19,084 bases of DNA, from IMG/VR virus record IMGVR_UViG_2609459794_000003. The stretch is one strand, 5' to 3'. Source of the DNA: a virus. Taxonomy: Duplodnaviria; Heunggongvirae; Uroviricota; Caudoviricetes. This document shows positions 1-18,588 of the stretch, piece after piece; position 1 is the first letter of the stretch, and each line of letters begins with the position of its first letter. Made by a program: the position numbers and the translations under genes. The notes beneath the pieces are model-generated. The model ran no database searches and was not told the DNA's origin. It worked only from the letters and a program-made list of their open reading frames with translations.

Positions 1-42
1 TGAACCGCCCCGGGTTTCCTGGAGAGTGTTTTATCTGTGAAC

Positions 43-933
43 TCAGGCTGCCAGATCATCGTTTCCGATGGAAGCATAATAAGCTTTTTCTGCTTCTGCC
101 GGAGGAGTATGGCCCAGCCTTTCCAGCAATCGTCGATTGTTATACCAGTCCACCCACGTGAGTGTGGCCAGTTCCACTTCTGCACGGTTTTTCCAGCTCT
201 TACGGTGTATTACCTCCGCTTTGTAAAGACCATTGATGCTCTCCGCCATCGCGTTGTCATACGAGTCGCCTGTACTTCCTGTTGATGCCAGTAATCCGGC
301 TTCCTTAAGCCGCTGTGTGTAGGCCAGCGATACATACTGAGAACCTTTATCACTGTGATGGACCGTGCCGGACGGTCGACGGGCCCATAACGCCTGCTCC
401 AGTGCATCCAGCACGAATGTCGTTTCCATGGACGATGAGACCCGCCACCCCACGATGTATCCGGCAAACACATCAATGATGAACGCCACATAGACGAAGC
501 CCCGCCATGTGCTGACGTAAGTAAAATCAGCCACCCACAGCTGGTCAGGTCGTTCTGCCACGAACTGACGGTTTACGCGGTCGCCTGCGGCAACGGCTTT
601 CCGGCTGATGGTCGTACGGACCTTTTTACCCCGGAGAACACCGGCAAGTCCCATAACCGCCATGAGACGTGCCACAGTGCATCTGGCCACTCTGATACCT
701 TCCCGTAACAACTGACGCCAGACTTTACGCACACCGTATACCTTGTGATTTTCATCGTATACGCGCTGTATCTCTTTCTTCAGCCAGTCATCGCGCTGCG
801 CACGGGCACTGCGTTTATCCGGATGATGTCGCTGTTGCTGACAGTGGTAATACGTTGACGGGGCAATATGTAGTTCACTGCATACCGGTCCGACCCCGTA
901 CAGCTTACGCAGCTTATCCAGCAGTGGCATCAC
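43..933 (-). CDS. IS3-family transposase OrfB (DDE catalytic domain), probably expressed as an OrfAB fusion by -1 frameshift
   Basis: 296-aa ORF with retroviral-integrase-like DDE region (...WVADFTYV..., ...HHSDKGSQY..., ...[15 protein letters not shown]...). It overlaps orfA by a few nt in the -1 frame next to an A-rich stretch (GGAAAAAG). Confidence 0.9.
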
Positions 934-1256
934 TTTTTCCAGAGGCGGTCGAACTCCGCCTTCGCAAAATAAGCGGAAGCCTGGCGAAGGATATCGTTAC
1001 TGCGGCGCAGTTCACGATTTTCACGTTCCAGCTCTTTCAGACGCTGACGTTCAGCGGTGGTGAGCCCTCCATCACCGCCCCCGGTATCCCGCTCATGCTG
1101 GCGAACCCAGACACGCAGAGTCTCCGGCGTACAGCCAATCTTTGGAGCAATGGAACAAATTGTCGCCCATTGTGAGTCATATTCGCTCTGACTTTCCAGA
1201 ACCATACGGACTGCCCGTTGACGGACTTCGGGGGAAAAACGAGTATTTTTAGTCAT
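930..1256 (-). CDS. IS3-family transposase OrfA (HTH DNA-binding subunit)
   Basis: 108-aa [22 protein letters not shown]...[36 protein letters not shown], typical IS3-family OrfA with HTH and leucine-zipper-like C-terminus. It ends ...TGGAAAAAGTGA, overlapping the orfB start. Confidence 0.9.
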
Positions 1257-1307
1257 CCTGTTTACCTCTTTCTCAGGAAGTTTAGTCTCCAGGATTCCCG
1301 GGGCGGT

Positions 1308-1443
1308 TCAGTAAGGAGATTTTGGCTTGGTTGGATCTTTACGTGTTGCCTGTAGGCGGCCTGTTCGTATCCAGTTGGTGGCGGTTGGTCTGGATATCTT
1401 AAGAAACTGACAGGCCTCATCGAGTGTGAGGCTGTATGATTCC
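1308..1443 (-). pseudogene. xis: Xis/AlpA-type excisionase, 3' end truncated by the IS insertion
   Basis: 45-aa ORF MESYSLTLDEACQFLKISRPTATNWIRTGRLQATRKDPTKPKSPY with a GAGGT RBS 5-6 nt upstream. The HTH resembles phage excisionases, and the stop codon TGA is the reverse complement of the last three bases of the IS (1308-1310). Intact homologues are usually 60-80 aa. Confidence 0.55.
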
Positions 1444-1695
1444 ATGGTTACCTCTGCTTTTTGAACGCATGTCACGTAACTTCTTAATGTGTTCTGCCGT
1501 TTCGATCTCTTCTGCTATCCGATCTGCATCAGCTTTATTCACAGGTTCAAAGTCATGATTAAAGCGGAACATGCTGGCGATACATGTTCTGCCTTTTCGG
1601 ATGTAGTGAACTTTGTTGTGGGTAGAACGCAGGATTTTGCAGGGAGTGCCGTGGTGGTCGACGTACCAGGTGTTAGGGTAAATCACTCTGAACAT
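1417..1695 (-). CDS. hypothetical phage protein (92 aa)
   Basis: ORF in the leftward early operon; its start overlaps the end of the upstream 110-aa gene and its end overlaps the xis start by 26 nt. No family recognised. Confidence 0.4.
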   Translation of the reverse strand: MFRVIYPNTWYVDHHGTPCKILRSTHNKVHYIRKGRTCIASMFRFNHDFEPVNKADADRIAEEIETAEHIKKLRDMRSKSRGNHGIIQPHTR

Positions 1696-2005
1696 TCTTG
1701 ACCTTGTGTTGTGCGGATTGATATTCAGTGCTGATATTCACCTTTATAGCGAACACCTTTACCGGTTTATCGCCAAAGTGTGGATGTGTGATTGTCTTCA
1801 CTTCATATCCGTCATACGGAACATCAATTCTGCGACTGGAATCGTCGCGCTTCGGATATCCCTTTGTGATAATCAGGCGGTCATACTCCCGGAACATAAT
1901 TCGCTTATTCCAATAGTCATTACACAGGCGATACTCCTCCGTTTTCTCTCCGCGAATCATGGCATCGAAAAATTCACTTTTAACAGGAAGTTGCAGGTTA
2001 GCCAT
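1673..2005 (-). CDS. hypothetical phage protein (110 aa), possibly PUA/ASCH-like
   Basis: ORF MANLQLPVKSEFFDAMIRGEKTEEYR...; its ATG overlaps the TGA of the upstream TraR-like gene (TGATG). Domain assignment is a weak guess from the N-terminal motif. Confidence 0.45.
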   Translation of the reverse strand: MANLQLPVKSEFFDAMIRGEKTEEYRLCNDYWNKRIMFREYDRLIITKGYPKRDDSSRRIDVPYDGYEVKTITHPHFGDKPVKVFAIKVNISTEYQSAQHKVKNVQSDLP

Positions 2006-2226
2006 CACTTAATCCCCCTTTGTTTGCGGATAAGCTCCAGATCTTGCTGGCAACTGGCGCAAGTTCGACAACCCTGAACGGCTAGGCGTCTTCGTTCATC
2101 TATCGGATCACCACACTCACAACAATGAGTGGCAGATACAGCTAGGTGGTTCAGGCGGCGCATTTTTATTGCTGTGTTGCGCTGTAATTCTTCTATTTCT
2201 GATGCTGAATCAATGATGTCTGCCAT
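2005..2226 (-). CDS. TraR/DksA-family C4 zinc-finger protein (phage-encoded)
   Basis: 73-aa ORF with the CxxC...CxxC motif (CCECGDPIDERRRLAVQGCRTCASCQ) typical of TraR/DksA-like proteins, a family that includes lambda orf73-type proteins. Confidence 0.8.
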   Translation of the reverse strand: MADIIDSASEIEELQRNTAIKMRRLNHLAVSATHCCECGDPIDERRRLAVQGCRTCASCQQDLELIRKQRGIK

Positions 2227-2279
2227 CTTCCATTAATCCCTGAATTGTTGGTTAATACGCTTGAGGGTGAATGCGAACA

Positions 2280-2303
2280 ATAAAAAAGGAGCCTGTAGCT
2301 CCC
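2280..2303 (-). terminator. putative intrinsic terminator inside the leftward early operon
   Basis: On the minus strand: GGAGC-tacag-GCTCC followed by TTTTTTATT (plus-strand stem arms at 2288-2292 and 2298-2302, A-run at 2282-2287). Confidence 0.5.
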
Positions 2304-2324
2304 TGAGGATTTTGCTTTTCATGT

Positions 2325-2540
2325 TCACCGTTCCTTAAAGGCGCCGTTTAACATACCGATTGCCAGACTTAAATGAGTCGGTGTGAATCCCATCAGCGTT
2401 ACCGTTTCGCGGTGCTTCTTCAGTACGCTACGGCAAATGTCATCGACGTTTTTATCCGGAAACTGCTGTCTGGTTTTTTTGATTTCAGCATTAGCCTGAC
2501 GGGCAATGCTGCGAAGGGCGTTTTCCTGCTGAGGTGTCAT
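2325..2540 (-). CDS. hypothetical phage protein (71 aa)
   Basis: ORF MTPQQENALRSIARQANAEIKK...; its ATG overlaps the TGA of the upstream 27-codon ORF (ATGA coupling). The listed 104-aa ORF is this gene plus an upstream extension in the same frame. Confidence 0.5.
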   Translation of the reverse strand: MTPQQENALRSIARQANAEIKKTRQQFPDKNVDDICRSVLKKHRETVTLMGFTPTHLSLAIGMLNGAFKER

Positions 2541-2620
2541 TGAATAAGTCCCATGTCGGCAAGCATAAGCACACAAAATATGAAGCCCGCTGCCAGAAAA
2601 ATGCATTCCGTGGTTGTCAT
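2537..2620 (-). CDS. putative 27-aa hydrophobic (single transmembrane-like) peptide
   Basis: ATG ACA ACC ACG GAA TGC ATT TTT CTG GCA GCG GGC TTC ATA TTT TGT GTG CTT ATG CTT GCC GAC ATG GGA CTT ATT CAA TGA = MTTTECIFLAAGFIFCVLMLADMGLIQ. GGGAGG sits 4 nt upstream of the ATG, and the ATG overlaps the methyltransferase stop while its own stop overlaps the next ATG (ATGA at both ends). Confidence 0.35.
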   Translation of the reverse strand: MTTTECIFLAAGFIFCVLMLADMGLIQ

Positions 2621-3174
2621 GCAGCCTCCCGACGGGCAAGAATCCTTGAGCCGAACGCCATCAACTCTCCACGATCAACGGTCGTAAAGTGGCAGTGTGT
2701 ACGGGGGTATGCGTGCCAGATAATGAGCATCGAGCCTTTATTATTTCCACTGACGGGTTTCTCAGTGAGTGGGTTAATAAATGCCAGTCGTCCTGCCGTG
2801 ATGAATCTGACCTCACTGGCGGTTTGTATCGCTTCATGAAACCATCCGACAGATGTGTCAGCAGGCAATAACATTACACATCCCACACTACTGAATTTGT
2901 TTTCAGTGGCTGCCTTTTTCACAAAAGGGGAAATATTGCTGTATGGTGGATTCAACCAGACATAACCAGAGGCATATCCCATTGCTTCAGGCCATGAAGT
3001 GGTTAATGTGTTCTGCTCCTGTGAGATAAAAAGCCGACATAGTCGGTTTTTTTCGCTGGCGGCAGCATCAAGTTGAAAAACGAACTCTGCATTAAGCGCA
3101 GCAAAAATCTCTGGTGGTGTGCGCCAGCTGTCGCGATGTTCGGCAGGAGTATTGCTTCCGGTGAAATCAGTCAT
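2617..3174 (-). CDS. phage-type DNA N6-adenine methyltransferase (Dam family)
   Basis: 185-aa ORF with the NPPY catalytic motif (GYVWLNPPYSN) and the N-terminal ...DSWRTPPEIFAALNAEF... pattern typical of small phage Dam methyltransferases. Confidence 0.85.
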   Translation of the reverse strand: MTDFTGSNTPAEHRDSWRTPPEIFAALNAEFVFQLDAAASEKNRLCRLFISQEQNTLTTSWPEAMGYASGYVWLNPPYSNISPFVKKAATENKFSSVGCVMLLPADTSVGWFHEAIQTASEVRFITAGRLAFINPLTEKPVSGNNKGSMLIIWHAYPRTHCHFTTVDRGELMAFGSRILARREAA

Positions 3175-3328
3175 ACAGCCCCCGTTTATTATTTATCTCC
3201 TCAGCCAGCCGCTGTGCTTTCAGGGGATTTCGGATAACAGAAAGGCCGGGAAATATCCAGCCTCGCTTTGTAACGGAGTAGACGAAAGTGATCGCGCCTA
3301 CCCGGATATTATCGTGAGGATGCTTCAT
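3167..3328 (-). CDS. possible small ORF (53 aa) bridging exo and the methyltransferase
   Basis: ATG overlaps the exo stop (ATGA) and the last codons overlap the methyltransferase start (ATGACTGA). Translation [53 protein letters not shown]. No homology recognised; it is below the 60-aa cutoff of the ORF track. Confidence 0.3.
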
Positions 3329-3920
3329 CGCCATTGCTCCCCAAATACAAAACCAATTTCAGCCAGTGCCTCGTCCATTTTTTCGATGAACTCCGGCACC
3401 ATCTCGTCAAAACTCGCCATGTACTTTTCATCCTGCTCAATCACGACATAATGCAGGCCTTCACGCTTCATCCGCGGGTCATAGTTGGCAAAGTACCAGG
3501 CATCTTTTCGTGCCACCCACATGCTGTACTGCACCTGGGCCATGTAAGCCGATTTTATGGCTTCGAAACCACCGAGCCGGAACTTCATGAAATCCCGGGA
3601 GGTAAACGGGCATTTCAGTTCAAGGCCGTTGCCATCACTGCATAAACCATCGGGAGAGCAGGCGGTGCGCATACTTTCGTCGCGATAGATGATCGGGGAT
3701 TCAATAACATTCACGCCGGAAGTGAACTCAAACAGGGTTCTGGCGTCGTTCTCGTACTGTTTTCCCCAGGCCACTTCTTTCCTGAGCGGGGCTTTGCTAT
3801 CACGTTGTGAACTTCTGAAGCGGTGATGACGCCGAGCCGTAATTTGTGCCATGCATCATCCCCCTGTTCGACAGCTCTCACGTCGATCCCGGTACGCTGC
3901 AGGATAATGTCCGGTATCAT
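3325..3920 (-). pseudogene. exo: lambda-type exonuclease (Red alpha) disrupted by an ~85-nt internal deletion and frameshift
   Basis: Two overlapping ORFs in different frames together match lambda Exo as recalled: N-terminal [51 protein letters not shown] (3711..3920) and C-terminal ...[19 protein letters not shown]...FVFGEQWR (3325..3852). The span is 596 nt versus 681 nt expected for a 226-aa Exo; the junction is at about 3767-3773. Confidence 0.8.
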
Positions 3921-4702
3921 GCTGCCACCTTCTGCTCAGTGGCTTTCTGTTTCAGGAATCCAAGAGCTTTCACTGCTTCGGCCTGTGTCAGTTCTGACGA
4001 TGCGCGAATGTCGCGGCGAAATATCTGGGAACAGAGCGGCAATAAGTCGTCATCCCATGTTTTATCCAGGGCGATCAGCAGAGTGTTAATCTCCTGCATG
4101 GTTTCATCGTTAACCGGAGTGATGTCGCGTTCTGGCTGACGTTCTGCAGTGTATGCAGTATTTTCGACAATGCGCTCGGCTTCATCTTTGTCATAGATAC
4201 CAGCAAATCCGAAGGCCAGACGGGCACACTGAATCATGGCTTTATGCCGTAACATACGTTTGGGATGCGACTGCCACGGCCCCGTGATTTCTCTGCCTTC
4301 GCGGGTTTTGAATGGTTCGCGGCGGCATTCATCCATCCATTCGGTAACGCAGATCGGATGATTACGGTCCTTGCGGTAAATCCGGCATGTACAGGATTCA
4401 TTGTCCTGCTCAAAGTCCATGCCATCAAACTGCTGGTTTTCATTGATGATGCGGGACCAGCCATCAACGCCCACCACCGGAACAATGCCGTTCTGCTTAT
4501 CAGGGAAGGCGTAAATTTCTTTCGTCCACGGATTAAGGCCGTACTGGTTGGCGACGATCAGCAATGCGATGAACTGCGCATCGCTGGCATCACCTTTAAA
4601 TGCCGTCTGGCGAAGAGTGGTGATCAGTTCCTGTGGGTCGACAGAATCCATGCCGACACGTTCAGCCAGCTTCCCTGCCAGCGTTGCGAGTGCTGTACTC
4701 AT
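3917..4702 (-). CDS. bet: Red beta single-strand annealing protein (lambda Bet)
   Basis: 261-aa [40 protein letters not shown]... matching lambda Bet along its full length as recalled; its stop overlaps the exo ATG (ATGA). Confidence 0.95.
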
Positions 4703-4707
4703 CCGTT

Positions 4708-5004
4708 TTATACCTCTGAATCAATATCAACCTGGTGGTGAGCAATGGTTTCAACCATGTACCGGATGTGTTCTGCCATGCGCTCCTGAAACTCAACATC
4801 GTCATCAAACGCACGGGTAATGGCTTTTTTGCTGGCCCCGTGGCGTTGCAAATGATCGATGCATAGCGATTCAAACAGGTGCTGGGGCAGGCCTTTTTCC
4901 ATGTCGTCTGCCAGTTCTGCCTCTTTCTCTTCACGGGCGATCTGCTGGTAGTGACGCGCCCAGCTCTGAGCCTCAAGACGATCCTGAATGTAATAAGCGT
5001 TCAT
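4708..5004 (-). CDS. gam: Gam, host RecBCD nuclease inhibitor (98-aa short form)
   Basis: [60 protein letters not shown]... matches the lambda Gam core. AGGAGG lies 6 nt upstream of the ATG, and an in-frame stop about 20 codons upstream precludes the long lambda-style N-terminal extension. Confidence 0.9.
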
Positions 5005-5079
5005 GGCTGACCTCCTGAAAATGGCTGTGAAAATATCGCCCGCGAAATGCCAGGCTGATTAGGAAAACAGGAAAGGGGA

Positions 5080-5370
5080 TTAGTGATTCAGGCCGTTACC
5101 GCGTCCGTCGAGAAAAACTTCCACGAGCAAATCACGGGTATAAGTGCGCTCGATGCCGCGATGCAGATAAAGCCGTCCGCGTAAATTAGCTGATGCAGTC
5201 CAGGTACCATCTTTGTGTTTGACCAGCATTCCTGGCATGACCGCACCTCGATTAACGGTCTGCGTTCCATAATGTTGATGAACCATAAAAACTCCTGCCC
5301 GTAAGCTGGGCTGCTGAACATATAGAGACTTCTGCGCGTATTCAGGCGGTGGATGGCCGCCGGTTGTCAT
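5080..5370 (-). CDS. hypothetical protein in the kil/cIII position (96 aa); coding status uncertain
   Basis: Only sizeable ORF between pL and gam; GC-rich, moderate RBS (GAGG about 11 nt upstream). An alternative 77-aa frame (5088..5321) exists, so this call is weak. Confidence 0.35.
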
Positions 5371-5559
5371 AACTAAGCCGCCTCGTTGAAGCGACTAAGG
5401 TATGAAATGTTGAGTTAATTTCAGCTGGTCACACCGACGTTCACGCGTCCGTTTCACCCCTCGCACTCCCCGAAGCCTGCTGAAATTCAAACTGCGGATC
5501 TAAGCGGTCATCGCAACGGTGAATCAGGTAGTTGCCGTATCGTTGTGTTGTTGCGATGA

Positions 5560-5625
5560 ACTTATTTAAAACTATAGTTGTTTTATCGTCAACAACAAAA
5601 GTTGTTTTATTGGTTGTTTTAGATA
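5560..5625 (-). promoter_or_regulatory. putative pL promoter with OL operator half-sites
   Basis: On the minus strand: -35 TTGACG (plus 5587-5592), 17-nt spacer, -10 TTAAAT (plus 5564-5569). It is flanked by repeated GTTGTT / AACAAC motifs and is nearly identical in layout to the pR region. Confidence 0.5.
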
Positions 5626-5727
5626 TAACTGGTTGTATTTAGGATGGATTTATTTTGTGACTTGAATCGCATAGCGATAACTGAAGCGAGGTTATGGTGG
5701 TTTTTTTAACGGTGTGTGATGAGGGGA

Positions 5728-5758
5728 GGGCAAAAGAAAACCCGGCACGGTGACCGGG
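5728..5758 (-). terminator. putative intrinsic terminator downstream of cI
   Basis: On the minus strand: CCCGG-ucaccgug-CCGGG followed by TTTTCTTTTG, about 120 nt downstream of the cI stop. Confidence 0.5.
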
Positions 5759-5879
5759 ATTCTTACGCCGTTAGGTAAAGATATTATTGCGGTGGCTTAA
5801 TATTACTACCTAGAGCAAAGATAGGAATTAGTTCTTTACTGAATGAGCACAATGCCCAGTTGATAATTTTTAATTGGTA

Positions 5880-6569
5880 CTACCCATGCTTCCTATATGT
5901 CTGCGGCATGCTCCCAATAACCTTACCGAAGATGAACACCCGGTTCATCTCGTCTTTCTCGATCGGGTCCCACGGTGAGTAGCTTTTGTTATCAGAGATG
6001 ACCAGCAGCTTATCCTTCATCATTTGCAGGCGCTTTACATGGGCTGTGTCGTCGTACAGAAACGCATAGATACCATCACCGTCGAAAGATTTAACTGTGA
6101 TATCAACGAACAGCAGATCACCTGGTTCGATCGTTCCTGACATGCTGTCACCACGCACGTTAATGATGCGGATATTTTCCGCCTTCCTACCATCGAACAT
6201 GTGACGAGCATCGTCAAACGAGTACTCAACCGAGCGTAGAACTTCTACAAACTCACGGTTGATGACTCCCGGCCCAGCACTGACTTCTATATCAAGAACG
6301 TCAATCTTGAAGTATTTGGAATGGCTGACAGTTGATTGTATTGGTTGCACTGTACTGTCTGACATATTTCCAACGCCAGAAGATAACCATTCTGCGCGCA
6401 CACCCAAAGCGTTCGCGATCTCCACGATTTTAGTTGTTTGATTAGCTTTCCCTGTTTCGATTTTCTGAATAGCAGCCTGGCTAACCCCGACCAAATCCCC
6501 AAGCGCCTTTTGTGTAAGGCCTCGCGCTAATCTGGCTTCTTTAAGTCTTTCTGAGAGTGTTGTTTTCAT
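5880..6569 (-). CDS. cI: CI-type prophage repressor (N-terminal HTH plus C-terminal S24 LexA-like autopeptidase)
   Basis: HTH LTQKALGDLVGVSQAAIQKIETGK; Ala-Gly cleavage-site candidate (EVSAGPG); catalytic Ser in VRGDSMSGT and Lys in AHVKRL. The start is taken at MKTTLSERL (ATG 6567-6569); the listed ORF extends 22 codons further upstream. Confidence 0.9.
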   Translation of the reverse strand: MKTTLSERLKEARLARGLTQKALGDLVGVSQAAIQKIETGKANQTTKIVEIANALGVRAEWLSSGVGNMSDSTVQPIQSTVSHSKYFKIDVLDIEVSAGPGVINREFVEVLRSVEYSFDDARHMFDGRKAENIRIINVRGDSMSGTIEPGDLLFVDITVKSFDGDGIYAFLYDDTAHVKRLQMMKDKLLVISDNKSYSPWDPIEKDEMNRVFIFGKVIGSMPQTYRKHG

Positions 6570-6580
6570 ATTCCAAATGT

Positions 6581-6672
6581 ACAACCAAGGTTTTATTCCA
6601 TCAAACGAAAATGGTTGTTGACTAAAAACAACCATAGTTTTAATCTTGATTCAAATTAACCACGGAGGTTGT
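6581..6672 (+). promoter_or_regulatory. pR promoter and OR operator region (divergent cI/cro control)
   Basis: -35 TTGACT (6618-6623), 17-nt spacer, -10 TAATCT (6641-6646). The perfect 9-7-9 palindrome ATGGTTGTT-GACTAAA-AACAACCAT (6611-6635) overlaps the -35; further GGTTGTT / ACAACC half-sites sit at about 6581-6587 and 6666-6672. Confidence 0.6.
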
Positions 6673-6673
6673 T

Positions 6674-6904
6674 ATGAACCCAGCTATCAAAACAGCGATC
6701 AATATCGTTGGTTCACAAAAGAAACTGGGCGCTGCTTGCGAAGTTTCACAGCAGGCCGTCTATAAGTGGCTTCACAACAAAGCAAAGGTATCCCCTGAAC
6801 ATGTCGGCAGCATTGTTACGGCTACTGGTGGAGTAGTGAAGGCATACCAGATTCGCCCGGATCTTCCGAAGTTGTTTCCACACACCGAAAAGAACGCAGC
6901 TTAA
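6674..6904 (+). CDS. cro: Cro-like HTH repressor
   Basis: 76-aa ORF divergent from cI with HTH GSQKKLGAACEVSQQAVYKW and GGAGG RBS at 6664-6668. Confidence 0.8.
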   Translation: MNPAIKTAINIVGSQKKLGAACEVSQQAVYKWLHNKAKVSPEHVGSIVTATGGVVKAYQIRPDLPKLFPHTEKNAA

Positions 6905-6916
6905 ATTTCCATTTCA

Positions 6917-6929
6917 CGCTCTTTAACAA
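6917..6929 (+). promoter_or_regulatory. boxA-like antitermination element (nutR position)
   Basis: CGCTCTTTAACAA immediately downstream of cro closely matches the rrn/lambdoid boxA consensus (GCTCTTTAACAA). No convincing boxB hairpin follows. Confidence 0.45.
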
Positions 6930-6973
6930 TAAGCAATCAACTTAACAGTCAATTCAAACTAAAGGAGTCAATT

Positions 6974-7513
6974 ATGCAACCACTTACATACCAACAGACT
7001 AGCGGATTTAGCCCGACTGCGGTGATAAATCGTTCTCAAACAAAACAGGTGCCAGGCCACGAAAAAATCCGTGATGCCGTCCGCGCCTGGTCGGCTGTAG
7101 ATAATCAGGATGTCGTTGCCACACTCATTGTGAATGAGTATCGGGAGCAGGGCGGCGGCACCATCGATTTCCCTGATGATGTCAGCCGTGCACGCCAGAA
7201 GCTGTTCCGCTTCCTCGATAACAAATTCGATTCTGAAAAATACCGAAATAACGTGCGTGAACTGACCCCGGCAATTCTGGCGGTACTACCGCTGGAATAT
7301 CGCGGTTACCTGGTTGAGCAGGATAGCTTCATGGCTAGGTTGGCTGAAATGGAAAAGGAACTCAGTGAGGCAAAACAGGCTGTCATTCTCAACGCACCAC
7401 GCCACCAGAAACTGAAGGAAATTAGTGAAGGTATTGTGTCGATGTTTCGTGTGGACCCAGATCTGGCTGGTCCATTGATGGCGATGGTTACTACCATGCT
7501 GGGGGCGATATGA
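6974..7513 (+). CDS. YdaT-like protein in the cII position
   Basis: 179-aa ORF with AAGGAG RBS. Motifs EYREQGGG and LTPAILAVLPLEYR resemble the Rac prophage YdaT family as recalled. Confidence 0.55.
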   Translation: MQPLTYQQTSGFSPTAVINRSQTKQVPGHEKIRDAVRAWSAVDNQDVVATLIVNEYREQGGGTIDFPDDVSRARQKLFRFLDNKFDSEKYRNNVRELTPAILAVLPLEYRGYLVEQDSFMARLAEMEKELSEAKQAVILNAPRHQKLKEISEGIVSMFRVDPDLAGPLMAMVTTMLGAI

Positions 7514-7599
7514 CAGGTTCAGAAATGGCGAAAGCCGGTCTGCTGGAACAGAACCGACTTTCAGGTGCAAATCGTAACACACTCATTGCGGGAGGAATT

Positions 7600-8529
7600 A
7601 TGGCAAACACTGCTGAGATATTCAATTTTCCAGTGCCGGATGCGGCACAAAAGGAGCCGCGCGTGGCAGATCTCGATGATGGTTATACGCGCATTGCAAA
7701 TGAGTTGCTGGAAGCTGTGATGCTGGCCGGATTAACACAGCACCAGCTTCTGGTCTTCCTGGCTGTCATGCGCAAAACATATGGCTTTAATAAAAAACTG
7801 GATTGGGTGAGCAACGAGCAACTGTCCGAATTGACCGGGATATTGCCGCACAAGTGTTCTGCTGCAAAAAGTGTTCTGGTAAAGCGTGGGATTTTGATTC
7901 AGAGCGGGCGGAATATCGGTATTAATAATGTGGTCAGTGAATGGTCAACATTACCCGAATCAGGTAAGAAAAATAAAGTTTACCTGAAAGAGGTAAATAT
8001 ACCTGAATCAGGTAAGAAAAGTTTACCCAAATCAGGTAAAGGCGTTTACCCGAATCAGGTAAACACAAAAGACAAACTAACAAAAGACAATATAAAACCT
8101 TTTTCGTCCGAGAATTCTGGCGAATCCTCTGACCAGCCAGAAAACGATCTTCCTGTGGTGAAACCGGATGCTGCAATTCAGAGCGGCAGCAAGTGGGGGA
8201 CAGCAGAAGACCTGACCGCCGCAGAGTGGATGTTTGACATGGTGAAGACTATCGCACCATCAGCCAGAAAACCGAATTTTGCTGGGTGGGCTAACGATAT
8301 CCGCCTGATGCGTGAACGTGACGGACGTAACCACCGCGACATGTGCGTGCTGTTCCGCTGGGCATGCCAGGACAACTTCTGGTCCGGTAACGTGCTAAGT
8401 CCGGCCAAACTCCGCGACAAGTGGACCCAACTCGAAATTAACCGTAACAAGCAACAGGCAGGCGTGATAGCCAGCAAACCAAAACTCGACCTGACAAACA
8501 CAGACTGGATTTACGGGGTGGATCTATGA
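7600..8529 (+). CDS. O: replication initiator O (lambda-O-like; divergent N-terminal iteron-binding domain, lambda-like C-terminus)
   Basis: GGAGG RBS at 7591-7595, then MANTAEIFNF...RVADLDDGYTRIANELLEAV...; C-terminus ...KPKLDLTNTDWIYGVDL as in lambda O. The listed ORF starts 30 codons upstream at 7510. Confidence 0.9.
   Translation: MANTAEIFNFPVPDAAQKEPRVADLDDGYTRIANELLEAVMLAGLTQHQLLVFLAVMRKTYGFNKKLDWVSNEQLSELTGILPHKCSAAKSVLVKRGILIQSGRNIGINNVVSEWSTLPESGKKNKVYLKEVNIPESGKKSLPKSGKGVYPNQVNTKDKLTKDNIKPFSSENSGESSDQPENDLPVVKPDAAIQSGSKWGTAEDLTAAEWMFDMVKTIAPSARKPNFAGWANDIRLMRERDGRNHRDMCVLFRWACQDNFWSGNVLSPAKLRDKWTQLEINRNKQQAGVIASKPKLDLTNTDWIYGVDL
7951..8105. repeat. origin of replication: four palindromic iterons plus an AT-rich segment inside the O gene
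   Basis: Direct repeats ACC(C/T)(G/A)AATCAGGTAA at 7951-7968, 7999-8016, 8022-8040 and 8045-8064, each an internal palindrome (ACCTGA-A-TCAGGT), with a degenerate copy at 7979-7996. They are followed by the A-rich tract ACACAAAAGACAAACTAACAAAAGACAATATAAAACC. Confidence 0.75.
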
Positions 8530-9227
8530 AAAACATCGCCGCACAGATGGTTAACTTTGACCGTGAGCAGATGCGTCGGATCGCCAACAACATGCCGGAA
8601 AAGTACGACGAAAAGCCGCAGGTACAGCAGGTAGCGCAGATCATCAACGGTGTGTTCAGCCAGTTACTGGCAACTTTCCCGGCGAGCCTGGCTAACCGGG
8701 ACCAGAACGAACTGAACGAAATCCGCCGCCAGTGGGTTCTGGCTTTCCGGGAAAACGGGATCACCACGATGGAACAGGTTAACGCAGGAATGCGCGTAGC
8801 CCGTCGGCAGAATCGACCATTCCTGCCATCACCCGGGCAGTTTGTTGCCTGGTGCCGGGAAGAAGCATCCGTTACCGCCGGGCTGCCAAACGCCAGCGAG
8901 CTGGTTGATATGGTTTACGAGTATTGCCGGAAACGTGGCCTGTATCCGGATGCAGAGTCTTATCCGTGGAAATCAAACGCGCACTACTGGCTGGTTACCA
9001 ACCTGTATCAGAACATGCGGGCCAATGCGCTGACTGATGCGGAATTACGGCGCAAGGCTGCCGATGAACTGGCCTGTATGACAGCGCGAATTAACCGTGA
9101 TGAGGCGATACCTGAACCAGTAAAACAACTTCCTGTCATGGGCGGTAGACCTCTAAATCGTGCACAGGCTCTGGCGAAGATCGCAGAAATCAAAGCTAAG
9201 TTTGGGCTGAAAGGAGCAAGTGTATGA
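8526..9227 (+). CDS. P: replication protein P (DnaB helicase loader), lambda-type
   Basis: 233-aa ORF MKNIAAQMVNFDREQMRRIANNMPEKYDEKPQVQQVAQIINGVFSQLLATF... matching lambda P as recalled; its start overlaps the O stop. Confidence 0.95.
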   Translation: MKNIAAQMVNFDREQMRRIANNMPEKYDEKPQVQQVAQIINGVFSQLLATFPASLANRDQNELNEIRRQWVLAFRENGITTMEQVNAGMRVARRQNRPFLPSPGQFVAWCREEASVTAGLPNASELVDMVYEYCRKRGLYPDAESYPWKSNAHYWLVTNLYQNMRANALTDAELRRKAADELACMTARINRDEAIPEPVKQLPVMGGRPLNRAQALAKIAEIKAKFGLKGASV

Positions 9228-9526
9228 CGGGCAAAGAGGCAATTATTCATTACCTGGGGACGCATAAGAGCTTCTGTGCACAGGACGTTGCCGCGGTAAC
9301 AGGCGCAACCGTAACCAGCATAAATCAGGCTGCGGCTAAAATGGCGCGGGCAGGAATCCTGGTCGTTGATGGTAAGGTCTGGCGAACGGTGTATTACCGG
9401 TTCGCTACCAGAGAAGAACGGGAAGGAAAGGTGAGCACGAATCTGATTTTTAAGGAGTGTCGCCAGAGTGCCGCGATGAAACGGGTATTGAGGGTATATA
9501 AAAGAACATCAATGGGTACACAATGA
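9224..9526 (+). CDS. ren: Ren-like protein (Rex-exclusion resistance), C-terminus divergent
   Basis: MTGKEAIIHYLGTHKSFCAQDVAAVTGATVTSINQAAAKMARAGILVVDGKVWRTVYYRFATREEREGK... matches lambda Ren as recalled; the last ~10 residues differ where the low-GC island begins. Confidence 0.8.
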   Translation: MTGKEAIIHYLGTHKSFCAQDVAAVTGATVTSINQAAAKMARAGILVVDGKVWRTVYYRFATREEREGKVSTNLIFKECRQSAAMKRVLRVYKRTSMGTQ

Positions 9527-9593
9527 TGAAACAGGTGAGTTGAGTTCAAACTGTAGTACAATTCTCTCCAGTTTGAACAGGAAAGAATATGCT

Positions 9594-9926
9594 ATGAACC
9601 CTTATATTTATCTTGGTGGTGCAATACTTGCAGAGGTCATTGGTACAACCTTAATGAAGTTTTCAGAAGGTTTTACACGGTTATGGCCATCTGTTGGTAC
9701 AATTATTTGTTATTGTGCATCATTCTGGTTATTAGCTCAGACGCTGGCTTATATTCCTACAGGGATTGCTTATGCTATCTGGTCAGGAGTCGGTATTGTC
9801 CTGATTAGCTTACTGTCATGGGGACTTTTCGGCCAACGGCTGGACCTGCCAGCCATTATAGGCATGATGTTGATTTGTGCCGGTGTGTTGGTTATTAATT
9901 TATTGTCACGAAGCACACCACATTAA
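9594..9926 (+). CDS. emrE: small multidrug resistance (SMR) efflux transporter EmrE
   Basis: 110-aa, 4-TM ORF MNPYIYLGGAILAEVIGTTLMKFSEGFTRLWPSVGTIICYCASFWLLAQTLAYIPTGIAYAIWSG... with the conserved membrane-embedded Glu in the first helix (AEVIGT). Confidence 0.95.
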   Translation: MNPYIYLGGAILAEVIGTTLMKFSEGFTRLWPSVGTIICYCASFWLLAQTLAYIPTGIAYAIWSGVGIVLISLLSWGLFGQRLDLPAIIGMMLICAGVLVINLLSRSTPH

Positions 9927-9956
9927 AATAATTTGTTTCTAAACGACTAAAATATG

Positions 9957-9996
9957 GAGGCTCTTATATTTATATGAGCCTCGTTTTATGCTTTTT
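9957..9996 (+). terminator. putative terminator after emrE
   Basis: GAGGCTC-ttatatttatat-GAGCCTC (7-bp stem) followed by GTTTTATGCTTTTT. Confidence 0.5.
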
Positions 9997-10180
9997 GTTA
10001 ATGTCTTTATTTTTTATGTATTCTTTTGTGCTTTCAAGATTATGGCGTAAGAAAATTGCAATACGATTATTGTTGTATATTCAAGATAATGTGACCTTAA
10101 TTGTCTTTTTAAATAAAAATTAAACAAAAATTATATCCCACCACTAAGGTTTATAAAAGCATACGTTAGCAGGTGTCACC

Positions 10181-11707
10181 ATGAAAAAAGCCATAGCATA
10201 TATGCGATTTTCATCACCAGGTCAGATGTCTGGTGACTCATTAAACCGACAGAGAAGACTTATTGCTGAATGGTTAAAGGTAAATAGTGATTATTATCTT
10301 GATACCATAACATATGAAGATTTAGGATTAAGTGCATTCAAAGGAAAGCATGCACAATCAGGAGCTTTTTCGGAATTTTTAGATGCTATAGAGCATGGTT
10401 ATATATTGCCAGGAACTACATTGTTAGTTGAAAGTCTGGACAGACTTTCAAGAGAAAAAGTCGGTGAAGCGATTGAACGTCTGAAATTGATTTTGAATCA
10501 CGGTATTGATGTTATAACTCTTTGCGACAATACAGTCTATAATATTGACTCTTTGAATGAGCCATATTCATTAATAAAAGCCATACTTATAGCACAAAGG
10601 GCAAATGAAGAAAGCGAGATAAAGTCAAGTCGGGTTAAATTATCATGGAAGAAAAAACGGCAGGATGCACTGGAATCAGGTACGATTATGACGGCGTCTT
10701 GTCCGAGATGGCTCTCCTTAGATGACAAAAGAACGGCTTTTGTTCCAGACCCCGACAGGGTGAAAACTATTGAGCTAATTTTTAAACTCAGGATGGAAAG
10801 GCGCTCATTGAATGCAATAGCCAAGTATTTAAATGATCATGCTGTAAAGAATTTCTCAGGAAAAGAAAGTGCATGGGGACCTTCTGTAATTGAAAAATTA
10901 TTAGCGAATAAAGCTCTGATAGGTATATGCGTACCTTCATATCGTGCAAGAGGGAAAGGGATAAGTGAAATCGCTGGCTATTATCCCAGAGTCATATCAG
11001 ATGATTTGTTTTACGCTGTACAGGAAATTCGGTTGGCACCTTTTGGTATTAGCAATAGTAGCAAGAATCCTATGCTAATAAATCTACTTCGAACAGTTAT
11101 GAAGTGTGAGGCTTGTGGTAATACCATGATTGTTCATGCGGTATCTGGAAGTTTGCATGGCTATTATGTTTGTCCGATGAGAAGATTACATCGATGTGAC
11201 AGGCCATCAATAAAAAGAGATTTGGTTGATTATAATATCATTAATGAATTGCTTTTTAATTGTAGCAAAATTCAACCAGTTGAAAACAAGAAAGATGCTA
11301 ATGAAACTTTAGAGTTAAAAATTATTGAGCTTCAGATGAAAATTAATAATTTAATCGTTGCATTGTCTGTCGCGCCTGAAGTTACCGCTATAGCAGAGAA
11401 AATAAGACTATTAGATAAGGAATTACGAAGGGCTTCGGTATCATTGAAAACTTTGAAGAGTAAAGGTGTAAATTCATTCAGTGATTTTTATGCTATTGAC
11501 TTAACCAGTAAAAATGGACGAGAGTTATGCCGTACACTTGCCTATAAAACATTCGAAAAAATCATAATTAATACGGATAATAAAACCTGTGATATCTATT
11601 TTATGAATGGCATTGTTTTTAAACACTATCCTTTAATGAAAGTAATATCCGCCCAGCAGGCGATAAGTGCTCTCAAATATATGGTTGATGGTGAGATTTA
11701 TTTCTAA
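10181..11707 (+). CDS. ybcK: large serine recombinase (resolvase/invertase catalytic domain, recombinase domain, zinc ribbon)
   Basis: 508-aa ORF with N-terminal serine-recombinase motif (AIAYMRFSSPGQ...SLNRQ), Cys cluster CEACGN...YYVCPMRRLHRCD and a C-terminal coiled-coil-like region. Low-GC gene. Confidence 0.9.
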   Translation: MKKAIAYMRFSSPGQMSGDSLNRQRRLIAEWLKVNSDYYLDTITYEDLGLSAFKGKHAQSGAFSEFLDAIEHGYILPGTTLLVESLDRLSREKVGEAIERLKLILNHGIDVITLCDNTVYNIDSLNEPYSLIKAILIAQRANEESEIKSSRVKLSWKKKRQDALESGTIMTASCPRWLSLDDKRTAFVPDPDRVKTIELIFKLRMERRSLNAIAKYLNDHAVKNFSGKESAWGPSVIEKLLANKALIGICVPSYRARGKGISEIAGYYPRVISDDLFYAVQEIRLAPFGISNSSKNPMLINLLRTVMKCEACGNTMIVHAVSGSLHGYYVCPMRRLHRCDRPSIKRDLVDYNIINELLFNCSKIQPVENKKDANETLELKIIELQMKINNLIVALSVAPEVTAIAEKIRLLDKELRRASVSLKTLKSKGVNSFSDFYAIDLTSKNGRELCRTLAYKTFEKIIINTDNKTCDIYFMNGIVFKHYPLMKVISAQQAISALKYMVDGEIYF

Positions 11708-12171
11708 ATAATGATCTCGGATTTTAAGTTATGCTATGGTGATAAAGTGCAAGACAGAATTAATTATCTTTGACGAAACTTAATGGGTAATTACTTTGTT
11801 TGCTCCCACAAGCGAGTTTTGTACGGCTGTATTGGGGTAGTAAATGAGCTATACAATCTTAATCATTTGTTAGGTGAGAACTCTTGGTCGCAGATTCAAA
11901 TACTGAAAATACGTGACAAATTATTATGAGCAAAATGGTGTATGTCACGTATTTTGAATGGTAGGTTAAAAAATAACACCGACTTTCGTAGGTATTACTA
12001 ATAATAAAGCAGAGTTTTTAGATAGTATCAATGTGCTTTGTGTATATTGTGGCAAATAATTGGGTTGGGGGTACAATTGTGATTGCTTTTGCATAAACAT
12101 TGCGCCTTTATGCATAATGAGATAAAGGAATATCAAATAAAATAACGATAGGTCATAACAAAGAGGTTTTT

Positions 12172-12723
12172 ATGAAAACACTTATCGTTTCAACTGTATT
12201 GGCATTCATAACATTTTCTGCGCAGGCTGCAGCATTTCAGGTCACTAGTAATGAAATAAAAACAGGAGAGCAACTTACAACGTCTCATGTCTTTTCTGGA
12301 TTTGGGTGTGAAGGTGGTAATACATCGCCCTCATTAACCTGGTCTGGTGTTCCTGAAGGTACCAAAAGCTTTGCCGTAACTGTATATGATCCAGATGCAC
12401 CTACAGGCAGTGGTTGGTGGCATTGGACTGTTGTTAATATTCCAGCAACAATAACATATTTGCCCGTTGATGCAGGGAGACGTGATGGAACAAAACTGCC
12501 GACTGGTGCTGTTCAAGGCCGAAATGATTTTGGCTATGCTGGGTTTGGTGGCGCATGTCCTCCTAAAGGAGATAAACCACATCATTACCAGTTTAAAGTA
12601 TGGGCTCTAAAAACTGAAAAGATTCCTGTAGATTCTAACTCCAGCGGAGCGTTAGTTGGTTATATGCTTAATGCTAATAAAATCGCAACCGCTGAGATAA
12701 CACCAGTTTATGAGATAAAGTAG
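12172..12723 (+). CDS. ybcL: secreted PEBP/RKIP-family protein (YbcL-like)
   Basis: 183-aa ORF with signal peptide MKTLIVSTVLAFITFSAQAAA and PEBP-type motifs (YDPDAP, GxHHY). Confidence 0.85.
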   Translation: MKTLIVSTVLAFITFSAQAAAFQVTSNEIKTGEQLTTSHVFSGFGCEGGNTSPSLTWSGVPEGTKSFAVTVYDPDAPTGSGWWHWTVVNIPATITYLPVDAGRRDGTKLPTGAVQGRNDFGYAGFGGACPPKGDKPHHYQFKVWALKTEKIPVDSNSSGALVGYMLNANKIATAEITPVYEIK

Positions 12724-12732
12724 GGTGAGAGT

Positions 12733-13530
12733 ATGCTGGCAAGAGGTAAGACTAACTTAAAGATCGAAGAAATACGGATGCATAAACATCATGAGATTCA
12801 TAGGGTTAAGCCTCTTATGCCAGCTTTGTGTCGTATCCGTCAGGGAAAGAAAGTTATCAATTGGGAGACGCATACTTTAACTGTTGATAATAATCAAATA
12901 ATATTATTTCCTTGTGGTTATGAATTTTATATTGAGAATTATCCTGAAGCAGGGCTTTATCTTGCAGAAATGCTTTACTTACCCATTGATTTAATTGAGA
13001 GTTTCCAAAAACTTTATACGGTAACTGATCAAATACGTAACAAAACAAGTTTCTTTTTACCTCAGAATCCTGAGTTAATATATTGTTGGGAGCAACTAAA
13101 AACATCTGTTTCCCGAGGCTTCTCAACTAAAATTCAGGAGCACTTAGCAATGGGCGTTCTACTTTCGTTAGGAGTGAATCATGTTAATCATTTACTTTTA
13201 TCATATAGTAAACAATCATTGATAAGTCGTTGTTATAACCTGCTGCTATCCGAACCCGGCACAAAATGGACAGCAAACAAGGTTGCTCGATATCTCTACA
13301 TTTCTGTTTCTACATTACATCGCCGTCTAGCAAGCGAGGGGGTAAGTTTCCAAAGTATACTGGACGATGTGAGGTTAAATAATGCGTTGTCTGCTATACA
13401 AACGACGGTAAAACCTATAAGCGAGATTGCCAGAGAAAATGGTTATAAGTGTCCTTCTCGTTTTACTGAAAGATTTCATAATCGTTTTAATATAACACCA
13501 AGAGAGATAAGAAAAGCTTCCAGAGAGTAA
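12733..13530 (+). CDS. ybcM: AraC/XylS-family transcriptional regulator (YbcM-like)
   Basis: 265-aa ORF with C-terminal AraC-type double HTH (...[40 protein letters not shown]...[30 protein letters not shown]...). Confidence 0.8.
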
Positions 13531-13646
13531 AAGTGTTTTAAGAAGGAGCAATTCTATCGATTTTGATTTTGGGAAATCAACACGGCATAATTATGTCACC
13601 GGAGCCTGAACAACTCCGGTGACTTCTGCGCTAAACGGGGACGTTT

Positions 13647-13748
13647 ATGCGCACATACAATCCAAACTCTCTTCTCCCTTCACAGATGCAGAAATGCACC
13701 TGCAATTCTTTGCATCTAGCGTTTGACCTCTGCGGAGGTGAAGCGTGA
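13647..13748 (+). CDS. ylcH: possible 33-aa small protein (YlcH-like)
   Basis: ATG at 13647 to TGA at 13746-13748 encodes [33 protein letters not shown]; its stop overlaps the ybcN GTG start. The assignment rests on position and length only. Confidence 0.35.
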
Positions 13749-14200
13749 ACCTCTCACAAGACGGCATCAAATTACATCGCGGCAACTTCACCGCTATCGG
13801 TCGGCAGATCCAGCCTTATCTGGAGGAGGGCAAATGCTTTCGCATGGTGCTTAAACCGTGGCGTGAGAAACGCAGTCTTTCCCAGAATGCACTCAGCCAC
13901 ATGTGGTACAGCGAAATCAGTGAATACCTCATCAGCAGGGGTAAAACGTTCGCCACTCCAGCTTGGGTAAAAGATGCTCTCAAACACACATATCTCGGTT
14001 ATGAAACCAAAGACCTGGTTGATGTCGTAACCGGTGATATCACCACTATCCAGTCGTTACGCCATACCTCCGATCTTGATACCGGAGAGATGTATGTCTT
14101 CCTGTGTAAGGTTGAAGCCTGGGCGGTGAATATTGGCTGCCACCTGACTATTCCGCAGAGCTGCGAGTTCCAGCTGCTCCGCGACAAGCAGGAGGCGTAA
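13745..14200 (+). CDS. ybcN: NinB-family protein (YbcN-like)
   Basis: 151-aa ORF with GTG start; nin-region position upstream of ninE; sequence matches DLP12 YbcN as recalled. Confidence 0.8.
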
Positions 14201-14370
14201 TGGCTACACCGCTTATTCGTGTCATGAACGGACACATCTACAGAGTATCAAATCGTCGTAAGCGTAAGCCTGAGCTGAAGCCATCCGAAATACCAACACT
14301 GCTCGGATATACCGCTAGCCTGGTTGATAAAAAATGGTTGCGACTGGCAGCAAGGAGGAATCATGGCTGA
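14200..14370 (+). CDS. ninE: NinE-like small protein
   Basis: 56-aa [59 protein letters not shown]; its ATG overlaps the ybcN stop (TAATG). Below the ORF-track cutoff. Confidence 0.7.
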   Translation: MATPLIRVMNGHIYRVSNRRKRKPELKPSEIPTLLGYTASLVDKKWLRLAARRNHG

Positions 14371-14653
14371 TTTGAGAAAAGCAGCGCGTGGTCGGGAATG
14401 CCAGGTAAGAATCCCTGGCGTATGTAATGGCAATTCTGAAACGTCTGTACTGGCACATATCCGGCTGGCTGGATTGTGCGGTACCGGTATCAAACCGCCA
14501 GACCTGATTGCCACCATTGCATGTTCTGCCTGCCACGACGAAATCGACCGCCGCACACATTTTGTCGATGCTGCATATGCAAAAGAATGCGCGCTGGAAG
14601 GTATGGCGAGAACACAGGTTATCTGGCTGAAAGAGGGGGTTATTAAGGCGTGA
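14363..14653 (+). CDS. ybcO: YbcO-like nin-region protein (Cys-rich, putative nuclease)
   Basis: 96-aa [45 protein letters not shown]...CSACHDEID; GGAGG RBS at 14354-14358. Confidence 0.8.
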
Positions 14654-15012
14654 ATACCTACAGTATCACATTACCCTGGCCTCCGAGCAATAATCGCTAT
14701 TACCGCCATAATCGCGGGCGCACGCACGTCAGTGCAGAGGGGCAGGCATACCGCGATAACGTCGCCCGAATCATTAAAAACGCAATGCTGGATATCGGCC
14801 TGGCTATGCCTGTGAAAATCCGCATTGAGTGCCACATGCCGGATCGCCGTAGCCGTGACCTGGATAATCTGCAAAAAGCCGCTTTTGACGCACTCACTAA
14901 AGCAGGTTTCTGGCTGGATGATGCTCAGGTCGTTGATTACCGCGTTGTGAAGATGCCTGTTACCAAAGGTGGGAGGCTGGAACTGACCATCACCGAAATG
15001 GGGAATGAATGA
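14650..15012 (+). CDS. rusA: RusA Holliday-junction resolvase
   Basis: 120-aa [53 protein letters not shown]...[15 protein letters not shown]... matching RusA as recalled; GTG start overlapping the ybcO stop. Confidence 0.95.
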
Positions 15013-15149
15013 TGTTTGAGTTTAATATGGCAGAACTTCTTCGCCACCGCTGGGGGCGTCTGCGCTTATATCGTTTCCCCGGCTCTGTTTTGACCGATTA
15101 CCGAATACTGAAGAATTACGCCAAAACACTGACAGGAGCAGGAGTATGA
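15009..15149 (+). CDS. ylcG: YlcG-like small protein (46 aa)
   Basis: [46 protein letters not shown]; its start overlaps the rusA stop. Below the ORF-track cutoff. Confidence 0.55.
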
Positions 15150-15234
15150 AGTCAGAGATAACAATCAACTAATACTGTTTTGTTGATTTTTGCTTGTAAT
15201 TGGCGTTCTGGTCTGAGTTTTGTGGAGTAAGTTG

Positions 15235-15612
15235 ATGCGTGATATTCAGATGGTTCTTGAGCGTTGGGGAGCGTGGGCGGCTAATAATCATGAAGATGTG
15301 ACCTGGTCGTCCATTGCCGCCGGTTTTAAGGGATTAATTCCTTCAAAAGTAAAATCTCGCCCGCAATGTTGTGACGATGACGCGATGATCATTTGCGGGT
15401 GCATGGCCCGTCTGAAAAAGAACAACAGCGATTTGCATGATTTATTGGTGGACTATTATGTCGGCGGCATGACTTTTATGGCGCTTGCACGTAAGCATGG
15501 GCGATCTGATTGTTGGGTTGGCAGGATGCTCCAGAAAGCTGAGGGCGTAGTGGAGGGTATGCTGATGGTGTTGGATCTCCGATTGGAGATGGATGCTGAT
15601 TGTTCAAAATAA
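15235..15612 (+). CDS. quuD: late-gene antiterminator Q (QuuD / phage 82/21 type)
   Basis: [62 protein letters not shown]...; Cys-rich zinc-binding region; located immediately upstream of a terminator, as for Q/qut/tR'. Confidence 0.85.
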
Positions 15613-15711
15613 TTAAAGGAAAAGTTGCTGTCTGATTCTCATTAGTCTAACATTTTAAATGTTGGAATCGCAACGTAGTTATTATCATATAACAGCTTGT
15701 TTCCTGATTTA

Positions 15712-15740
15712 GCCAGCCTCCCCAAAGGCTGGTTTTTTTC
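15712..15740 (+). terminator. tR'-like intrinsic terminator downstream of Q, preceded by a putative late promoter region
   Basis: CCAGCC-tccccaaa-GGCTGG followed by TTTTTTT. Candidate PR' upstream: TTGCTG (15625-15630), 17-nt spacer, TAACAT (15648-15653). Confidence 0.6.
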
Positions 15741-15767
15741 TAATAAGTATTATTTCGGGTAGGGATT

Positions 15768-18527: not shown

Positions 18528-18588
18528 CGTGATGCGTTTTAATGATTTTGTAATTTTCGTATTTGATAATTGTATGATGCTTTCAGCT

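Follow-up and report, generated by a model that had tools for sequence, protein, structure and literature searches.

The stretch of DNA analysed here (the window: 19,084 nucleotides of the Caudoviricetes record IMGVR_UViG_2609459794_000003) opens with a complete IS629 element of the IS3 family, which occupies positions 1–1310 on the minus strand and directly adjoins a truncated excisionase gene, xis (1311–1445, minus strand). The element was identified by its full-length identity to annotated IS629 copies, and its ends were defined from the inverted repeats. Positions 1–1310 were 99.1% identical, over all 1310 bases, to GenBank features annotated 'IS3 family IS629' in Stx phages, and 99.5% identical to the IS interrupting a phage-21-type int in strain EC38 (AF017626); both values exceed the identity of at least 95% required for IS629, with GenBank-annotated copies as the reference. 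The length of 1310 bp agrees with the approximately 1310 bp expected, and the termini are imperfect repeats of the form 5′-TG...CA-3′ that begin TGAACC. The left terminal inverted repeat (1–25; TGAACCGCCCCGGGTTTCCTGGAGA) is complementary to positions 1310–1286 at 23 of 25 positions, with agreement at all of the first 14 and 5′-TGAACCGCCCCGGG at both ends; the right repeat (1286–1310) adjoins xis. The first-pass annotation had placed the start of the window exactly at the other IS end, and base 1 is indeed the outer base of the left terminal repeat.

The transposase genes of the element are co-directional with xis. On the minus strand, orfA (1256 to 930; 108 aa) matches the N-terminal part of NCBIfam transpos_IS3, and orfB (933 to 43; 296 aa), which encodes a DDE integrase-like catalytic domain, matches the same family with 311.6 bits; Pfam rve is present on the same OrfB protein in other genomes. 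The two frames overlap at 930–933, as predicted for a two-ORF DDE transposase. In addition, an ALIL pseudoknot, the −1 frameshift stimulator, was detected at the overlap (975 to 859, minus strand; Rfam RF01497, 116.2 bits against a gathering score of 50). The IS629 copy in the window is thus complete and apparently functional, with frameshifting predicted. IS629 produces target duplications of 3–4 bp (PMC3271280). Because the copy with 99.5% identity generates a duplication of 3 bp (TAT), the GTA at 1311–1313 is predicted to be the right-hand copy of a 3-bp target-site duplication, the left copy of which lies outside the window.

IS629 interrupts xis after codon 45

The truncated gene comprises codons 1–45 of a P22/DLP12-type excisionase (MESYSLTLDEACQFLKISRPTATNWIRTGRLQATRKDPTKPKSPY), as judged from its identity to intact Xis. 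It starts at an ATG at 1445–1443 on the minus strand (the coordinate 1443 quoted in the first-pass annotation is the low end of this start codon), with a putative Shine-Dalgarno sequence, AGAGGT, read 4 nt 5′ of the ATG (1450–1455, minus strand). An in-frame GTG at 1475, which would give a product of 55 aa, was rejected as the start because homologues begin at the ATG instead. Codon 45 is the TAC at 1313–1311, and it is followed by a TGA (1308–1310, minus strand) formed by the terminal three bases of the IS629 right end. Therefore, the earlier proposal of a 45-codon ORF ending at TGA 1308–1310 was confirmed on the minus strand, as was the claim that the IS truncates the excisionase and supplies its stop codon: IS629 cuts xis after codon 45 and places its own TGA in frame. 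When the IS629 right end is read in each frame, one of the three stops at once on this TGA and the other two stop within 9–14 codons; an in-frame stop at the IS629 end would be unremarkable by chance.

The 45-aa fragment was 100% identical to residues 1–45 of the 123-aa Xis of E. coli strain KH_005 and of phages ev243 and PhiR30_1. Pfam HTH_17 was matched over residues 6–36 (E = 5.4e-9; profile positions 2–32 of 51), and TIGR01764 ('excise') scored 28.6 bits, just below its cut-off of 28.8, so that the fragment carries an N-terminal excisionase-type helix-turn-helix. In annotation, this ORF is better labelled an xis pseudogene than a 'helix-turn-helix protein'.

The same junction, ...CTCCTTAC followed directly by TGAACCGCCCCGGGAATCC..., was found in two independent assemblies, L005 (GCA_025156995.1) and L006 (a contig of a short-read metagenome assembly in ENA). 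This result argues against a misassembly peculiar to the window. That the junction is an assembly artefact, in which an IS629 contig was wrongly joined to the prophage, is suggested by the terminal position of the IS in the window and by the usually multi-copy nature of IS629; however, an identical junction in L005 and L006, with the join falling precisely at the end of the IS as it does in genuine insertions, leaves this explanation very improbable. The flank at 1311–1677 was identical in the window, L005, L006 and a further contig, L007, which is compatible with either one origin spread by recombination or repeated insertion at the same base.

The exact 45-aa product was present in 39 blocks of the protein collection, ten contigs of which were examined. 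Two of these ten were the IS629 junctions of L005 and L006, and the other eight were partial genes at contig ends, which stop at TAC or TACC without IS sequence; the next base was C, as in intact xis, in seven of the eight. We therefore rejected the reading of the 45-aa product as a widespread allele. To account for the contig ends, IMG/VR was also searched for copies of ...CCTTACC in which the next base is not T, and none was found.

The window prophage is closely related to an IS-free element at argU

Positions 1311–19084 were 99.9% identical to the KH_005 prophage at tRNA-Arg (argU). A nucleotide-level comparison of the two showed a single SNP, a deletion of 85 bp and an indel of one 11-bp repeat unit. 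The KH_005 prophage is IS-free, with int and argU directly adjacent; integration at argU is known from this sister, and a tRNA search of the window itself found none. As read from the annotated, 99.9%-identical KH_005 locus and from comparison with K-12, the gene content and order are those of DLP12 (ren, emrE, ylcJ, ybcK, ybcL, ybcM, ybcN, ninE, ybcO, rusA, ylcG, Q, essD and rrrD). By these genes, the window prophage is a fuller relative of the cryptic DLP12 of K-12.

The xis gene of KH_005 is uninterrupted; it encodes 123 aa, and its overlap with intD is 145 nt long. Comparison of this product with the 45 aa of the window indicated that the insertion removes 78 residues.

The truncation removes conserved parts of Xis

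The 123-aa Xis was 76% identical over residues 1–122 to the annotated xis products of P22, ST64T and SfV, and 80% or more of its length was covered in 161 of the 162 phage records with a match. An identical 123-aa ORF is present in records deposited as phages (ev243 and PhiR30_1), and homologues of 115–123 aa were recovered from about 15 enterobacterial genera in a large protein collection. In the homologue alignment, the residues T48, C52, I53, A54, A55, P59, V65, S66, A67, C77, G86, L98, L102 and T106, all past residue 45, were nearly invariant. The first-pass annotation had suspected that the natural C-terminus is missing and had proposed alignment to intact homologues; in that alignment the intact relatives, of 115–123 aa, were alignable end to end and no homologue naturally ended at residue 45, which bears out the suspicion.

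The AlphaFold model of a 123-aa homologue was confident for residues 1–60, with strands at residues 5–7, 33–35 and 45–48 and helices at 8–15, 19–28 and 49–57; beyond residue 60 a poorly ordered linker was followed by a helix at 91–106. A fold search identified Pukovnik Xis (4j2n), BldC and P2 Cox (4lhf) as the nearest solved structures, with 54–58 aligned columns; the match to mycobacteriophage Pukovnik Xis had a TM score on the target of 0.74–0.76 over 54–55 columns. A sequence search of solved structures with Xis returned nothing useful. The winged-helix fold spans about 55–57 residues, and the window product ends at residue 45. In terms of the model, strand 1 and both helices of the helix-turn-helix are retained in the fragment, and the last strand (45–48) and helix 3 (49–57) of the fold are missing. 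The conserved 66-residue C-terminal region of Xis is also gone; by analogy with lambda Xis, its role is probably in cooperative assembly or in contacting Int. P22 Xis itself has been shown to bind att DNA and to bend it (Mattis et al., 2008, cited in PMC7498355). A full-length P22-type Xis has 115–123 aa, the conserved C-terminal region and a 3′ gene end overlapping int, and the window encodes 45 aa. On this comparison, the window xis is a pseudogene fragment of the P22-type excisionase family.

We also considered that the 45-residue product might be a short excisionase that is natural or still works, in which case nothing would be lost. The helix-turn-helix is retained, with its HTH_17 match (E = 5e-9), and some excisionases are only about 55–70 aa long, such as Pukovnik Xis, for which the crystal shows 56 residues. 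However, the listed 45-aa entries are all IS junctions or contig ends, the homologues are strongly conserved after residue 45, the strand at 45–48 and the helix at 49–57 lie within the modelled fold as well as within the 54–58 columns of the structural matches, and the stop codon is made of IS sequence. Such an explanation is accordingly given next to no weight, and the truncation is taken as a loss of conserved structure.

Simple insertion is favoured over rearrangement

Under a simple insertion, the left side of the element is predicted to read ...GTTGTGAGGTA followed by TGAACCGCCCCGGG, leading leftwards into the 3′ part of xis, intD and argU. This junction was absent from 5,426 complete E. 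coli genomes and the JGI metagenomes. The right xis/IS629 junction was likewise absent from the 5,426 complete E. coli genomes, the JGI metagenomes, the GTDB species representatives and IMG/VR. An exact look-up of the window OrfB returned 859 blocks, and this locus was not among the 10 matches listed. The only contig that crosses IS629 is L006, whose far flank is IS91-like plasmid DNA without a GTA duplication. L006 was rejected as a guide to the left side of the window, being a short-read metagenome assembly that is possibly chimeric; its IS629 differs from that of the window at 11 positions.

An alternative is that IS629 marks a deletion, an inversion or a recombination between two copies, after which the rest of xis, int and attL would not be neighbours any more, and that the prophage was immobilised by the loss of int or an att site and not by the loss of Xis alone. 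The window begins exactly at the outer end of the IS, as when an assembler cannot choose among several flanks, which indicates that the genome probably carries several IS629 copies. Matching duplications were reported for only 21 of 47 IS629 copies of O157 genomes (PMC3271280), which makes rearranged copies common, and both the L006 flank and the failure to find the predicted left junction in the JGI metagenomes or complete genomes would also fit a rearrangement. However, the right junction is equally absent from those collections, so the negative searches are uninformative, and the far flank of L006 may be chimeric. Moreover, the IS-free KH_005 prophage is almost identical (one SNP in 17.7 kb), with int and argU adjacent; this near-identity suggested that the event is recent and that secondary rearrangements have had little time to arise. 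We therefore regard a rearrangement as rather unlikely, and the insertion in the window, judged against its IS-free sister, as probably recent and simple.

Proposed consequence for excision

We consider it likely that IS629 in xis cripples Xis and grounds this DLP12-like prophage; within this explanation, we infer the loss of excision and the polar effect on int. IS629 transposed into xis between codons 45 and 46, in the same orientation as xis and int. Its end, 5′-TGA..., lies in frame, stops translation immediately and leaves a 45-residue fragment, which should neither fold nor bind the attachment-site arm in the manner of P22 Xis. Int-mediated recombination between attL and attR would then lose its directionality factor. 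In addition, with only 92 bp between the 1.3-kb insert and the expected start codon of int downstream, the insert probably uncouples int from transcription through xis. Induced excision should drop several orders of magnitude, to a leaky level independent of Xis, as in K-12 DLP12, and the prophage would be grounded.

The DLP12 prophage of K-12 excises in fewer than 1 in 100,000 cells (PMC3105296). Since this element still excises without an intact xis, a large reduction is to be expected in the window prophage and not abolition. It is reasonable to infer, as proposed at first pass, that the prophage is probably excision-defective, but by analogy with K-12 DLP12 the term should be read as 'reduced to leaky background'. 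At most three copies of this xis segment were found per genome, and the defect could be complemented in trans if another prophage in the same cell carried a similar xis. The element is thus predicted not to excise efficiently. The grounding of a prophage by an IS is an ordinary phenomenon, and the present case is a new allele, an instance of a familiar kind.

The insertion could also be a neutral, late step in the decay of an already cryptic prophage, in which case the loss of xis changes nothing; we rate this as a serious contender, somewhat short of an even prospect. The portal gene of KH_005, the nearest relative, is already broken (a pseudogene), so the element may have become cryptic through something other than the loss of xis. 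Moreover, exo in the window carries the 85-bp deletion, which is frameshifting, and DLP12-type elements are reported to occupy their locus in 74% of 638 strains (PMC6379469). On the other hand, the repressor, replication, recombination and lysis genes of the window are intact apart from this and share 99.99% identity with those of KH_005, and the recurrence of IS3-family insertions in P22-type xis across several lineages suggests that grounding may be selected. Neutral decay is in any case compatible with the disruption of xis by IS629 and bears on its consequence alone. With its near-identical, IS-free sister, the disrupted prophage provides a dated snapshot, and the pair could be used to measure the effect of Xis loss alone on the excision of a DLP12-type element.

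IS insertions recur in P22-type xis genes

The characterised excisionase of the family, P22 Xis (116 aa), shares the layout in which xis overlaps the 5′ end of int; in contrast, the DLP12-type Xis has 123 aa and the KH_005 prophage lies at argU rather than thrW. The same IS element, with 99% identity, has been described in the prophages of EHEC O157:H7 (Ooka et al., 2009; Rump et al., 2011). IS629 prefers prophage DNA, where 62% of copies reside, and inactivates genes (PMC3271280); its location mostly in prophages, with inactivation of genes there, is also described in PMC9943667. Unlike the O157:H7 insertions, which lie in Sp/SpLE elements, the host here is a DLP12-type element. No mention of this xis/IS629 junction, or of IS629 together with DLP12, was found in the searched literature.

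Other IS3-family insertions in P22-type xis genes likewise leave a resident prophage with an IS-disrupted excisionase, and several of them fall within codons 45–57; they differ from the window in insertion point, element, host lineage and, in one case, orientation. IS629 was found at xis codon 6 of an E. coli thrW prophage (L018), after codon 54 in the opposite orientation (L020) and just before codon 57 in S. boydii (P0107), and IS911 was found after codon 53 in Shigella flexneri (P0097 and P0100). In SfX, an IS2 is annotated beside xis. Furthermore, IS629 was located in the neighbouring DUF4222 gene (L017) and in int (L003 and L001).

The insertion site coincides with a deletion breakpoint of K-12 DLP12

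The K-12 pseudogene xisD (b4633) is the same gene in the same prophage family, and neither K-12 nor the window has an intact Xis. In K-12 DLP12, the first 44–45 codons of xis are gone, by a 1,987-bp deletion into exo, and the 3′ part is kept (from about codon 45 onward); the xisD/exoD junction is without an IS, whereas the window keeps the 5′ part of xis plus IS629. The K-12 junction consists, from the int side, of the KH_005 sequence to ...GTTGTGAGGTA, followed by the sequence from window position 3301 onward, and the exo endpoint reads ...CCCGGATATTATCG. A TA microhomology at the junction is common to 1312–1313 and 3299–3300. The left breakpoint thus falls within 1311–1313, the triplet that abuts IS629 as its expected target duplication.

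A deletion at the same codon-45 site, running the opposite way, was found in L019, a divergent P22-like prophage in which xis codons 1–45 continue in frame into the C-terminal part of int. The K-12 and L019 deletions each drop the would-be IS site and one flank and keep their own copy of the duplication. The excision of IS629 that depends on IEE and transposase generates adjacent deletions, from a few bases to more than 40 kb, with joins at microhomology (PMC9943667). Both deletions match these reported products, which is consistent with IS-anchored deletions. The chance of a coincident K-12 breakpoint was estimated at about 1 in 500–1000, a rough, post hoc figure that assumes about four breakpoints of K-12 across 19 kb and a tolerance of a few bases; a caveat to the IS-scar reading is that present-day K-12 has no IS629.

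Accordingly, we speculate only tentatively, with the balance leaning against it, that codon 45 of xis is a recurrent IS629 target that seeds one-sided deletions, and that the K-12 xisD/exoD junction is such a scar. If so, the window would be a surviving intermediate of the decay route behind K-12 DLP12, which would have lost its excision and recombination genes via IS629 insertion followed by loss of the IS and a one-sided deletion. The breakpoint shared with K-12 DLP12 is a modestly interesting lead. A separate cluster of breakpoints at xis codons 50/51 (P0098, P0099, P0101, P0064 and P0103) was not counted as IS-related; the one codon-50/51 case examined at the nucleotide level, L021, was a simple deletion across a CAA microhomology, without any mark of an IS.

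Rearrangements at xis codon 45

The three bases adjoining the IS629 insertion point (window 1311-1313) contain the left breakpoint of the xisD/exoD deletion in K-12 DLP12, and this trinucleotide is predicted to be the IS629 target duplication. Comparison with the K-12 MG1655 locus (L015, 2064-2080) showed that the segment missing from K-12 corresponds to window 1314-3300, and a TA microhomology was found at the join when window 1311-1313 and 3299-3301 were aligned with the same K-12 interval. A divergent P22-like prophage (L019 4001-4480, GCA_015730635.1) carries an in-frame fusion of xis codons 1-45 with the C-terminal portion of int, encoding the protein P0105. This fusion is a deletion that starts from the same codon-45 site as IS629 in the window and extends towards int.

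Seven contigs (L008-L014), obtained from different samples and with different assemblers, all end at their 3' side in ...CCTTACC, one base beyond xis codon 45. The shared end of separate contigs suggested a common sequence variant that diverges exactly at this point; such a variant was sought in IMG/VR and not found.

Recurrent IS3-family insertions in the xis/int module

In other lineages, IS3-family elements are repeatedly located inside or beside the xis/int module (L018 2736-4045, L017 2827-4137, L016 2910-4219, L003 2891-4200, L001 731-2040, and L020 at about 1725; proteins P0097, P0100, and P0107). IS629/IS1203 elements are present at codon 6 of xis, within DUF4222, and within int, and another follows codon 54 in the opposite orientation. 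The S. flexneri xis carries IS911 after codon 53 (P0097, P0100), and the S. boydii xis carries IS629 ahead of codon 57 (P0107). Most of these elements have the same orientation as int. The recurrence could reflect either a target preference of the elements or selection for grounded prophages.

Additional sequence changes in the window and its sister prophage

Compared with the nearly identical, IS-free sister prophage of E. coli KH_005, the window has lost 85 bp between two CAGGCCA copies in the lambda-type exonuclease gene (window 3767-3773), which shifts the reading frame and makes exo a pseudogene. The 11-bp unit TTAAATAAAAA is tandemly duplicated in KH_005, and the window lacks one of these copies at the ylcJ 3' end (window 10109). 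The KH_005 portal gene (L004 29643-29870) is itself annotated as a pseudogene, truncated and with an internal stop, suggesting that the lineage may have been unable to make particles already before the IS insertion.

Annotation of intact xis and variation within IS629

Where xis is intact and encodes 123 aa, the RefSeq gene model covers no more than about 21 codons (L004 6073-6135; L016 and L017, both 2687-2752), labeled as an incomplete helix-turn-helix pseudogene. Intact DLP12-type xis genes are thus systematically under-annotated, apparently because the gene overlaps int.

All six differences between the IS629 of the window and the EC38 copy fall within 63 bp (window 871-933), inside the ALIL frameshift pseudoknot and the orfA/orfB overlap. 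This cluster may represent a recombination patch between IS629 variants.
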